This document shows positions 35,697-51,607 of a DNA stretch of 64,000 nt, piece by piece. Within the stretch, counting starts at the first letter, position 1. Every line of letters starts with the position of its first letter. Below the pieces are notes generated by a model. That model was not told the origin of the DNA. It was given only the letters and a program-made list of their open reading frames with translations, and made no database searches. The position numbers and the translations under genes were made by a program. Source of the DNA: Octopus vulgaris (taxonomy: Eukaryota); NCBI GenBank assembly GCA_951406725.2, contig OX597820.1, positions 52,514,001 through 52,578,000 on the forward strand. The letters run 5' to 3'.

Positions 35697-36252
35697 CAAA
35701 CTAATCAACACATATATTTTGTAATACTTTCTAACTAGCATCATCTAATTCATCTACTACAACTTTATAAGCATTTATTCTTCTGTATTTCGAGGTCCTC
35801 CTTTTCTTTTTTGTGTAATACACCCTTTGCCATAGTATAAAATTAACTATTTCACAATAATTAAAGTATCTAAAAAAAAATTATAATTTTAGCAGCTAAA
35901 TTTTTGTAGTTTTTTTCTCAATACCGATTATTTACTTTGTAAAAAACGTTACCTGTAAAAATGAATGTATAAGAACGAAAATATGGGCTGACTAGTGAAA
36001 TACAGCTAATTACCTTGAAAGGTTCAGGTAAAGACATATGAAAGTTTTAAAATATTGGAACTAAATTTTGAATTTGAATTTAGTATGTCTTCTGTAGATT
36101 GTGCTACAAAGGGGTAAATGTTAGCAACATATAAAAGAGATGACTAGAGTACCCTTGCGACATATGCGTTCAACTTTGCGGGGCCAGTTTCTTTCCCCCG
36201 TAGCACCCTTTCATATGCATCCATGAGCACATAGCCAATAGTTTGTGCTGAT

Positions 36253-36431
36253 CTATATTTAAGAGATTAGGAATTATGTACATTATTTACATTATTTACA
36301 TTTGACGGATATTTGTCCTCATCTTGTTTGTTGTAAACTCAATGTTTCGGCTGATATACCCTCCAGTCTTCCTCAGGTGTCTTGGGGATATTTCGAACCT
36401 GGGTTCTCATCCCTAACGTATTTTTCTATGC

Positions 36432-36498
<67 letters not shown>

Positions 36499-36606
36499 GT
36501 TATTATTATTATTAATCTTATTATTATTCAAGTCACTGCTTGGAATCGGACTCGGGATCTAGGGGTTAGTAGCTCGCGCTCTTAACCACTACGCCATATG
36601 CCCGTG
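36253..36606 (-). mobile_element. tRNA-headed SINE-like element with (AAT)n spacer and hammerhead-containing body (family H)
   Basis: Reverse complement of the 49905-50205 element: head gggcatatggcgtagtggttaagagcgcg, then (AAT)n, then a body with a mutated hammerhead (gacac-ctgagga..cagcc-gaaacatt). Confidence 0.85.
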
Positions 36607-36612
36607 AGCATA

Positions 36613-36769
36613 TAATAATAGCATCGAAAAATACCTTAGGAATGAGAACACAGGTTCGAAATTTCCCCAAGACACCTGATGAAGGCTGGAGGGTATATCA
36701 GCCGAAACGTTGTGTTAACAACAAGCAAGATGAGGACAAATATCTGTCAATTGTAAATAACGTAAATAA
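36613..36769 (+). mobile_element. Inverted partial duplicate of the family H body
   Basis: Same body sequence as 36253-36440 in opposite orientation. It lacks the tRNA head and starts 7 nt from the 5' end of the minus-strand copy. Confidence 0.85.
36671..36716 (+). ncRNA. Minimal type I hammerhead ribozyme motif
   Basis: gacac-CTGATGA-a-ggctg(gagggtatat)cagcc-GAAAC-GTT-gtgtt. Stem I is gacac/gtgtt, the core is intact, stem II has 5 bp, and stem III is the loopless palindrome AACGTT. Confidence 0.8.
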
Positions 36770-49800: not shown

Positions 49801-49904
49801 ACATGTTTTGCATTAAACATTCGTATATATATGTATGTAATATATGTGAGCTTGTGTGCGGGTGATACACTCACAAGAACGCGCACGTACTCCCGCAACT
49901 GCAC

Positions 49905-50000
49905 GGGCATGTGGCGTAGTGGTTAAGAGCGTGAGCTACTAACCCCAAGATTCCGAGTTCGATCCCGGGCAGTGACCTGAATAATAATAATAATAATAAT

Positions 50001-50031
<31 letters not shown>

Positions 50032-50205
50032 TAACTTAGGAATGAGAACCCATGTTCGAAATTTCCCCAGGACACCTGATGAAGGTTGGGGGGGGGGGTA
50101 TATCAGCCGAAACGTTGTGTTAACAATAAGATGAGGACAAATATCCGTCAATTGTAAATAATGTAAATTAATATACATAATTCCTCATCTTTTAAATACA
50201 GAACT
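49905..50205 (+). mobile_element. Full copy of the tRNA-headed, hammerhead-containing SINE-like element (family H)
   Basis: A box tggcgtagtgg (49912-49922), B box gagttcgatcc (49955-49965), (AAT)/(AAC)n at 49980-50032, a body with a hammerhead at 50071-50121, and an AT-rich end. Confidence 0.88.
50071..50121 (+). ncRNA. Minimal type I hammerhead ribozyme motif
   Basis: gacac-CTGATGA-a-ggttg(...)cagcc-GAAAC-GTT-gtgtt, the same as 36671-36716 but with a G-U wobble in stem II and a poly-G loop. Confidence 0.75.
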
Positions 50206-50233
50206 GAACTGACACACATATATGTATGTATAT

Positions 50234-50300: not shown

Positions 50301-51494
50301 GACATGCAGGAAGTAAATAGACACCTATACTTTTCAAAATCTTTTATTTAATATGCAAAGTGAACAATTGGAATGTAATTGATAGGTAGGACTACATACT
50401 TTAGTATTCAGTTGACATTCCCTTTGCGGTTTTTAATTCAGAAACTCTTTTTGGCATTGAATTGCTGAACATTGTGATTGTCTCTTGTGGAATGTCTGTC
50501 CACTTTTCACGCAACAATCGAAACAATTCATCTTTAGATTTACGTTTCTGTCGAGTTTTTCGTATAGCTCTATCTAGTATGCTCCGAAAATTTTCAATTG
50601 GGTTCATAACAGGAGATTGGCTCGGCCAAGGAAGCTTTTTGATCCCATTTTCAGTCAGCCATTGTTGATTCCTTTTCGCTGTGTGGCATGAAGCCCCATC
50701 TTCCATGCATAAAAACTCATTTTTCATTATGTTATCGGAAGTAGTCCTTGCTTAAGTATTTCGATGTATTTTTCAGAGTTTATCGTTCCAACACATTCAA
50801 TCAGCTCAGAACGACCAGTACTGGTTACAGCTCCTCAAAACATTATAGAGATACCACCATGTTTCACAGTTGATTGGAGTCGTTTCAAATCAAATTCTGA
50901 CATCTCCTTAACCCATTTCTTTCTTTTCACGATAAGAAATAGTTTAAGGAGAGGTTTTCTTTTAGCTGCTTGTCCATAATACCCAAGCTTGTGCAGATAT
51001 GTAACACACGTTCTTGGATTAACCTCTAGTTGTTTTGCAATGTCAGAAGCCTTCGAACGGGATTCATTTTCCAGAATTCTCTTCAAACAGCCAAGCTTCC
51101 TCTCTGAGGATCCAGGTTGGCTGCGACGAGAATCTGTTGATTCTTTTCCTTGGCCTTTAAATTGTACTATAATTCTATTATTTCTTTGGCCTTTAAATTG
51201 TACTATAATTATATTAACAGTAGCAAGAGGAATTTGAACATTTTCGGCAATTTTTCGCTAAGTTCAACCTCAGATTGCCCAACAATACGACCACTTTGAA
51301 AATCTGACAGTTCTGCTGAATTTTTTGTGCGTGGCATGGGTACTCTTCGCAAATGTCTTACATAATGGCACTTGAAATGAAAAACAAAAAAAACAATAAT
51401 TACTTTGTAAATTCTACACCGCTGAAAACATTAAGACGCTTAGATCAGAAATTTTAGAAATTAAACGTGTCTATTTACTCCCTGCATGTGCATG
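50299..51494 (-). mobile_element. Defective Tc1 (DD34E) transposon, copy 2
   Basis: TIRs catgcaggaagtaaatagacac / gtgtctatttactccctgcatg match at 21/22 positions. The transposase pseudogene (50401-51337) has MEDGASCH, LPWPSQSPVMNPIEN and SMPKRV..GMSTEY*. There is a 36-bp tandem duplication at 51145-51216. Confidence 0.9.
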
Positions 51495-51544: not shown

Positions 51545-51607
51545 CCACCTGATGAATGACTGCGACTCAAAAATTTGAAGACTGCAGGCAGGAAACGATC
51601 GTAGTGG
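51545..51607 (+). ncRNA. Type I hammerhead ribozyme motif (unrelated family)
   Basis: ccac-CTGATGA-a-tgactgc(...)gcaggca-g-GAAAC-gatc-GTA-gtgg. Stem I is ccac/gtgg, the core is intact, stem II pairs at 6/7, stem III is the palindrome ACGATCGT, and the triplet is GUA. Confidence 0.72.

Follow-up and report, generated by a model that had tools for sequence, protein, structure and literature searches.

A tRNA-headed hammerhead repeat of Octopus vulgaris as the end of a Penelope-like element, with a likely Pol III promoter cassette in the pseudo-LTR

The window, i.e. the whole stretch of 64,000 nucleotides analysed here (Octopus vulgaris contig OX597820.1, positions 52,514,001 to 52,578,000 of the forward strand), contains a repeat unit with a tRNA-derived head, a microsatellite spacer and a body that includes a predicted hammerhead ribozyme, as well as a second locus of the same family. 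Their features, in window positions, are:

49889..49904, + strand: probable decayed remnant of the element's linker (from the ORF end to the head), aligning with the linker of the ORF-linked loci L291 and L365
49905..49979, + strand: tRNA-derived head, identified by sequence, colinear with host tRNA genes and situated in the pseudo-LTR of a Penelope-like element (PLE)
49912-49922, + strand: A box of the head, TGGCGTAGTGG, read from the sequence
49936-49942, + strand: 7-nt loop of the head, CTACTAA, read from the sequence
49956-49966, + strand: B box of the head, 33 nt beyond the A box, read from the sequence
49980-50030, + strand: spacer (AAT)7(AAC)10, whose length varies between copies
50031..50206, + strand: body, the 5' end of the PLE ORF, by the open frame of L171 and the match to the N-terminus of P0123
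50042-50044, + strand: first ATG of the body; the frame of this copy is broken by private indels
50071..50121, + strand: predicted minimal type I hammerhead, identified by sequence, with the architecture described in PMC4209133
50170..50206, + strand: optional PLE "tail" of ~35 nt, between two preferred 3' ends
50190-50193, + strand: T4 (run of four T) private to this copy, within the tail
50207..50211, + strand: extra AACTG, repeating the last five bases of the element
36252..36606, - strand: second locus, arm 1, with head, spacer and tailed body
36622..36769, + strand: second locus, arm 2, an inverted body with intact hammerhead and tail-less end

The A and B boxes, the 7-nt loop and the (AAT)/(AAC) spacer are present as an earlier note on this DNA had stated, and the independent copy it had reported at 36.3-36.6 kb is real, being a head-to-head pair of two arms at 36.25-36.77 kb. 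The description of the unit as "complete" does not hold, as the query comprises the last ~310 nt of an element of ~2.7 kb. We also discard the proposal that AACTG at both ends represents a target site duplication (TSD) or terminal redundancy: the match is at chance level (a 5-nt match occurs in 7% of random flank pairs), and the upstream AACTG corresponds, in an alignment, to part of the linker that belongs to the element itself. Both this AACTG and the 5' arm of a hairpin predicted at the head start lie inside 49889..49904.

Neither ARAGORN nor Rfam yielded a match for the head. Host tRNA genes align with it end to end, with up to 48 of 72 identities and z up to 7.3 against shuffled sequences, and this colinearity supports the suggested tRNA origin of the head with its A and B boxes. 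The best raw score among the 25 distinct host tRNA sequences compared was that of tRNA-Arg, with the donor not fixed by the alignment. Between copies, the B box (2.8% differences) is better conserved than the rest of the head (5.5%) and the A box (7.5%) is not. The linkage of head and body, previously proposed to mark a real family, was found in 24 of the 29 other head-selected loci, where the body follows within 500 nt downstream; in three of the remaining loci it comes after 516-747 nt of other sequence, and in two it is missing. Sixty evenly placed 10-kb stretches of the genome contained 9 loci, the body being present in 8 of them and ORF sequence in 1, and from this sample the family size is estimated as ~42,000 loci per 2.8-Gb genome (Poisson range 19,000-80,000). 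The median difference of copies from column majorities is 4.8-6.5%, and a divergence of ~5-6% corresponds to an age of roughly 13-18 My at the rate given in PMC13282606; the family is probably dead. Head, body and ORF were also found in public contig sets under four organism labels, one contig spanning the head-linker join; these sets are only guessed to be RNA-derived and carry nothing on ends or levels. The (AAT)n spacer seems to be a landing site, with other repeats, some of them tRNA-headed, directly behind or inside it (L032, L037, L045, L060, L242).

The query unit is almost certainly the end of a PLE. PLE-type reverse transcriptase (RT) fragments adjoin the unit in two loci, and these were the start of the ORF search; a genome search with the endonuclease (EN) peptide of those fragments gave 4499 candidates, of which 150 were scored and 30 loci fetched. 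The head is located behind the ORF (within ~150 nt, typically 60 nt from the last motif) in 29 of these 30 loci, the query locus included, and the body, at least in part, in 27. The near-full copies L155 and L365 have the order spacer-body-ORF-linker-head-spacer-body, and the partial tandems L181 and L189 the order ORF end-linker-head-spacer-body-ORF, which is the typical PLE arrangement. In L171 an open frame through the hammerhead and the tail continues into the RT protein, and 45 of 83 residues of the body frame agree with the N-terminus of P0123 (pairwise E 3e-22); a 47-nt GT...AG intron in the tail was considered and rejected, as the frame is open across it. No uninterrupted full ORF was found, the longest stop-free frame translated being that of 569 aa in L143. 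This frame matches RVT_1 with E 2.7e-6, just under the curated cut-off, shows 28% identity to a host Neptune-type PLE (E 6e-44), has 2989 homologues and carries a C-terminal GIY-YIG-like motif read from the translation; the PF01541 (GIY-YIG) profile gave no match to it. The family therefore exhibits the PLE characters of one ORF with an RT and a GIY-YIG-like motif, a partial-tandem pseudo-LTR, an inverted 5' arm, an optional 30-40-nt tail and, as described for PLEs in PMC4209133, a minimal hammerhead in the pseudo-LTR. The stand-alone, Sm-alpha-like unit envisaged earlier thus dissolves into the pseudo-LTR and the coding 5' end of an RT + GIY-YIG PLE, to which the head belongs as well. By analogy with the Anolis element, the body may be the region recognized by the RT.

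According to the criterion given in PMC8557442, a CCHH-type EN without the CX2-5CxxC linker finger is characteristic of the Penelope/Poseidon clade. This finger is missing upstream of the EN in L143 and present in L111, which together with sequence motifs points to a Penelope/Poseidon affiliation of the family. A tree that includes no named Poseidon references splits the family from Neptune-type proteins at 100/100. Neptune-type PLEs were also considered as the partner of the unit and rejected: they are abundant, but lack similarity to the body, have a different hammerhead, show an excess of T4 and have no A/B box in 50 loci.

The pattern of insertion bears the marks of a Penelope-type element. 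The 3' ends of 40 body matches in head-selected loci are bimodal, with 21 at positions 140-160, 15 at 181-185 and 4 earlier. Arms are joined head to head in 59 of 96 loci, and a flanking duplication with a score of at least 7, mostly 9-16 bp long, was detected in 32 of these 59 inverted loci; of the 37 loci with a single orientation only one has such a duplication, and mismatched controls have it in 8 of 150 cases. Among 41 body-body pairs, 36 combine a tailed with a shorter end, 5 have two short ends and none has two tailed ones. This fits the mechanism of the Anolis PLE in the account given in PMC11167929, in which both strands are cut and extended, two internal RT starts define the tail, and the substrate is uncleaved RNA, the reads presented there including none that end at the ribozyme site. 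By analogy, a dimeric RT/EN protein would nick both strands of AT-rich DNA, reverse transcription would begin inside the uncleaved RNA at two sites, one per strand, and a tailed and a tail-less arm joined head to head would result. The combination of tailed and tail-less arms, never two tailed ones, within ~12-bp duplications provides genomic support for the two-primer mechanism suggested by the in vitro work on Anolis. Junctions of inverted arms are often found on short palindromes such as GTTAAC, TTAA or TATA (L166, L173, L179, L182), a location that pairing between two same-sense cDNAs, or the folding back of a single one, would be expected to produce.

Our preferred interpretation, to which we assign a probability of roughly 0.6, is that the unit arose by insertion of a short copy of the 3' pseudo-LTR of a Penelope/Poseidon-type element, in which the A/B cassette likely serves as an internal Pol III promoter for both long and SINE-sized RNA, and that the element's own RT and GIY-YIG nuclease likely copy both. 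For the Pol III step taken by itself, which is read from genomic sequence, we see a somewhat better than even chance. Pol III would start a few bases upstream of the head and read through the T4-free element, which would need no terminator of its own, since the RT starts internally; RNA of the 3' pseudo-LTR would yield short head-to-tail copies like the query unit. Since uncapped Pol III RNA is a poor mRNA, read-through by Pol II may be the source of the protein.

The 5' ends were analysed in the first 30 of 270 exact intact heads. Twenty of them match the linker for only 4-9 nt, nine continue in the linker (eight of these reaching 99 to >1500 nt into the ORF) and one is mixed; the stops fall within about 6 nt, with none at -10 to -18 among the 30 heads. 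Lying some 12-17 nt ahead of the A box, this hot spot is well placed for initiation by Pol III, for which PMC8969392 gives a distance of 10-15 nt. A hairpin of -13.4 kcal/mol is predicted at the head start (L291), and it could create the hot spot without any promoter. Four full-head copies run into the ORF; two of them start at the head (L363, L364) and two pass through it (L181, L189).

The hairpin is central to the best of the alternatives, which we nevertheless regard as rather unlikely, namely that the element is an ordinary Pol II Poseidon-type PLE, the cassette no more than a passenger left in the UTR when a SINE or tRNA inserted there long ago, and the short copies 5'-truncations that pile up at the head-start palindrome, where cDNA folds back or two same-sense cDNAs pair. 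The exact coincidence of the predicted hairpin with the head start speaks for it, as do the fold-back copy of the head in many short copies, the other junctions on short palindromes such as GTTAAC, the lack of a diagnostic difference between short and long copies, and the TATA-less, LINE-like pseudo-LTR promoter of D. virilis Penelope, described as DPE-type in PMC2377424. The narrow range of the stops, with the empty interval at -10 to -18, argues against it, and it leaves unexplained both a T4-free stretch of 2.7 kb, where the controls have a 1.8-fold excess, and the pairing of a cassette with T4 scarcity in the distant element L386.

Over 2698 positions the majority columns of the family contain no T4, against 4.85 expected, or 2.55 expected from the observed run lengths, and no T4 run is common to more than 3 of 70 copies. 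Six near-full copies have 7 T4 against 31.8 expected, although these copies are not independent, as they derive from one master; L203 has 4 T4. Codon shuffles of single copies are not significant for T4 (L143: 3 vs 3.2), and Phe codons in the family are 5 TTT to 15 TTC (p 0.05). Without calibration by controls the depletion is modest. Forty related control ORFs from public contigs, mostly decayed and several of them from the same few metagenomes, contain 283 T4 against 166 expected. T4 is at or above expectation in 29 of the 30 with an expectation of at least 3, and these 29 have 253 T4 against 142 (1.78 of expectation) and G4 at 0.49 of expectation; ten rows with low expectation, four of them with 0-1 T4, were left out. 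Since the controls are T4-rich and G4-poor, the missing G4 of the family is ordinary and the missing T4 is not. Scans for relatives gave 79 loci in one case, three in another and none in three others.

L386 is a distant, intact Poseidon-type tandem element of 855 aa from a metagenome contig (L386:192-2985). Among 34 scannable metagenome loci no other has an A/B box behind the ORF, where chance would give 0.012, and L386 is also the only T4-poor one (ratio 0.34) among the 30 controls with an expectation of at least 3; it retains two T4 (p 0.056) and avoids TTT for Phe (p 0.02). In two sets of the octopus family's own heads the A/B pattern recovers no more than 17 of 30 and 10 of 29, so the controls may be under-called. 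The tRNA-like cassette of L386 ends in CCA, and behind it come a short AAT run and a hammerhead that contains the first ATG; a phage search with the L386 head returned chance matches only. The RT of L386 is 37% identical to that of the octopus family and is not grouped with it by FastTree; as L386 falls outside the octopus clade, capture of the cassette may have happened twice. We tentatively suggest, at somewhat less than even odds, that some Penelope/Poseidon elements, probably more than once, captured a tRNA-type promoter in the pseudo-LTR and purged Pol III terminators from their coding sequence; these would be autonomous elements with full-length RNA made by Pol III and SINE-like copies as a by-product. 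Because L386 is naturally intact, the Pol III claim is directly testable.

It may be asked whether the short copies instead form a genuine SINE lineage that has its own non-coding masters and depends on the PLE for mobilisation in trans, the head having entered the autonomous element by later recombination. ORF sequence is indeed missing in 8 of 9 random loci, the 5' ends cluster at the head, and the A/B spacing matches the SINE pattern given in PMC8969392. However, 29 of 30 ORF-selected loci contain the head, and a comparison of 58 short with 31 ORF-linked arms over 248 columns shows the same majority letters, common haplotypes and not one fixed difference; differences in frequency between the two sets result from how the short set was chosen, and divergence is similar (4.8% vs 6.5%, the short set having been chosen for similarity). 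The short copies thus give no sign, in their sequences, of a separate SINE lineage. Compared with SINE2 elements, the A/B head is present, but a separate lineage with a LINE-derived 3' end is not, the partner being a PLE, and TSDs around single copies are not apparent (1 of 37 against 8 of 150 controls). We consider a SINE lineage improbable and retain the preferred interpretation of pseudo-LTR insertions with a likely Pol III promoter.

In the hammerhead, stem I is formed by 50071-75 and 50117-21, the core CTGATGA (50076-82) is followed by a bulged A, and stem II pairs 50084-88 with 50104-08, including one G-U pair. GAAAC and GTT enclose the palindromic ACGT without a loop III, and the predicted cut is after 50116 (GUU). 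The intact core and the loopless palindromic stem III of a dimer-type minimal hammerhead can therefore be read as originally claimed. Rfam gave no match to the hammerhead. In the query copy a private G run makes up loop II, and minimum-energy folding does not give the hammerhead (z +1.13); the arm at 36.67 kb folds hammerhead stems I and II. Non-CpG differences amount to 4.0% in the core (36/902) vs 5.3% in the rest of the body (424/7972), so that conservation of the core does not clearly exceed that of its surroundings, which is what dead copies would be expected to show; the sole common variant of the core is at the free position 7. The peptide TPD(D/E)G...PKRCV from the hammerhead region is retained in P0123, and a matching hammerhead is present in L386. 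None of the 40 body matches has its 3' end at the cut (position 92 of 185), the 3' ends lying 50-90 nt beyond, and the 5' ends show no spike there (3 of 89 in the 91-95 bin). Hammerhead cleavage as the origin of 5' ends was rejected, as these ends form no more than a broad bump at 96-110, where the sequence is AAC-rich. The unit has its hammerhead from the PLE, and the unit ends are not set by the ribozyme; nothing in the genomic copies appears to point toward circular RNA. A Sm-alpha- or retrozyme-like unit, in which dimeric hammerheads would cut multimeric transcripts into monomers or circles that are then reinserted, has the Pol III boxes and hammerhead of the schistosome repeats (PMC6765202) and the intact core with its one common variant in its favour, but is very improbable, given that the loci inspected include no head-to-tail unit arrays with ribozyme-set ends, the ends lie elsewhere than at the cut, the body belongs to the coding part of an RT gene, and the Anolis PLE as described in PMC11167929 uses uncleaved RNA.

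With Penelope/Poseidon PLEs such as D. virilis Penelope and Anolis PAc (PMC11167929) the octopus element shares the single ORF with RT and C-terminal GIY-YIG without the CX2-5CxxC finger, the partial-tandem pseudo-LTR, the inverted 5' arm, the optional tail of 30-40 nt, the minimal hammerhead overlapping the ORF start, and 3' ends downstream of the cut. It is unlike them in the tRNA-derived cassette and (AAT)n in the pseudo-LTR, in being T4-free, and in the predominance of SINE-sized copies that begin at the cassette. Sm-alpha repeats and metazoan non-LTR retrozymes, as characterized in PMC6765202 and PMC7761336, share with the octopus unit a type I hammerhead with a weak or palindromic stem III and, in the case of Sm-alpha, a Pol III promoter (a putative one in the octopus unit), but form tandem non-coding arrays processed at the ribozyme, whereas the octopus unit occurs dispersed, derives from coding sequence and has boundaries other than the cut. 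A small-RNA-derived, Pol III-type promoter in a terminal repeat is shared by the TRIMp3 elements Cassandra, Helenus and Ajax, for which a SINE insertion is proposed as the source of the promoter in PMC10886601; these are, however, non-autonomous LTR elements of 311-1263 bp, their autonomous partners having to use Pol II according to the same source, whereas the octopus cassette sits in a protein-coding PLE of 2.7 kb.

The novelty of the octopus family is that of a PLE-order member set apart by a tRNA-derived A/B cassette inside the pseudo-LTR and by T4-free sequence. In the usual division, as set out in PMC10886601, Pol II transcribes the protein-coding retrotransposons, and the use of Pol III is confined to short non-autonomous ones. 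An RT/endonuclease element of 2.7 kb that combines a tRNA promoter with a lack of terminators would, if true, break this division. If the Pol III reading is true, it would also provide a direct route for a SINE-like family to bud from a PLE. Tens of thousands of apparent octopus SINE copies are reassigned to a PLE.

Ohshima and Okada in 1994 reportedly described the octopus tRNA-derived SINE families OK, OR1 and OR2. SINE2 elements, these families included, resemble the octopus unit in the A/B head, the short length and the tens of thousands of copies. The octopus unit differs from them in that its 3' part comes from a PLE and not a LINE, and in that it has no poly(A) or simple-repeat tail, no TSDs on single copies and no separate lineage; this comparison does not extend to the sequences of the published octopus SINEs. 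Neither a tRNA-type promoter in a PLE pseudo-LTR nor the octopus family itself is described in the titles and abstracts of the literature searched, and a term search of the PMC13282606 supplement found no "hammerhead" and no "Poseidon". The family may already be catalogued as SINE or Penelope in Repbase, Dfam, SINEBase, the PMC8557442 supplements, the Zenodo library of PMC13282606 or the 1994 paper.

Several other repeats were noted in the window and among the loci collected. A broken Tc1/mariner-type transposase with DDE_3 and HTH_Tnp_Tc3_2 matches occupies 50401-51430 (- strand). A second, unrelated hammerhead with a palindromic stem III lies at 51545-51607 (+ strand) in another dispersed repeat family (1149 candidates) with inverted arms, an optional extension at the 3' side and, often, a neighbouring (TA)n. 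In 8 loci no PLE ORF was found within 1.5 kb of such repeats, which probably represent the pseudo-LTR of a different PLE. On the minus strand of L097 and L099 there are further PLE-like endonuclease fragments, unlike those of the tRNA-headed and the Neptune-type families. We also found a young-looking family of Neptune-type PLEs (L111:1293-3590 and the related L067-L090) with many open frames of 781 aa and a minimal hammerhead of the UUGAUAA type.
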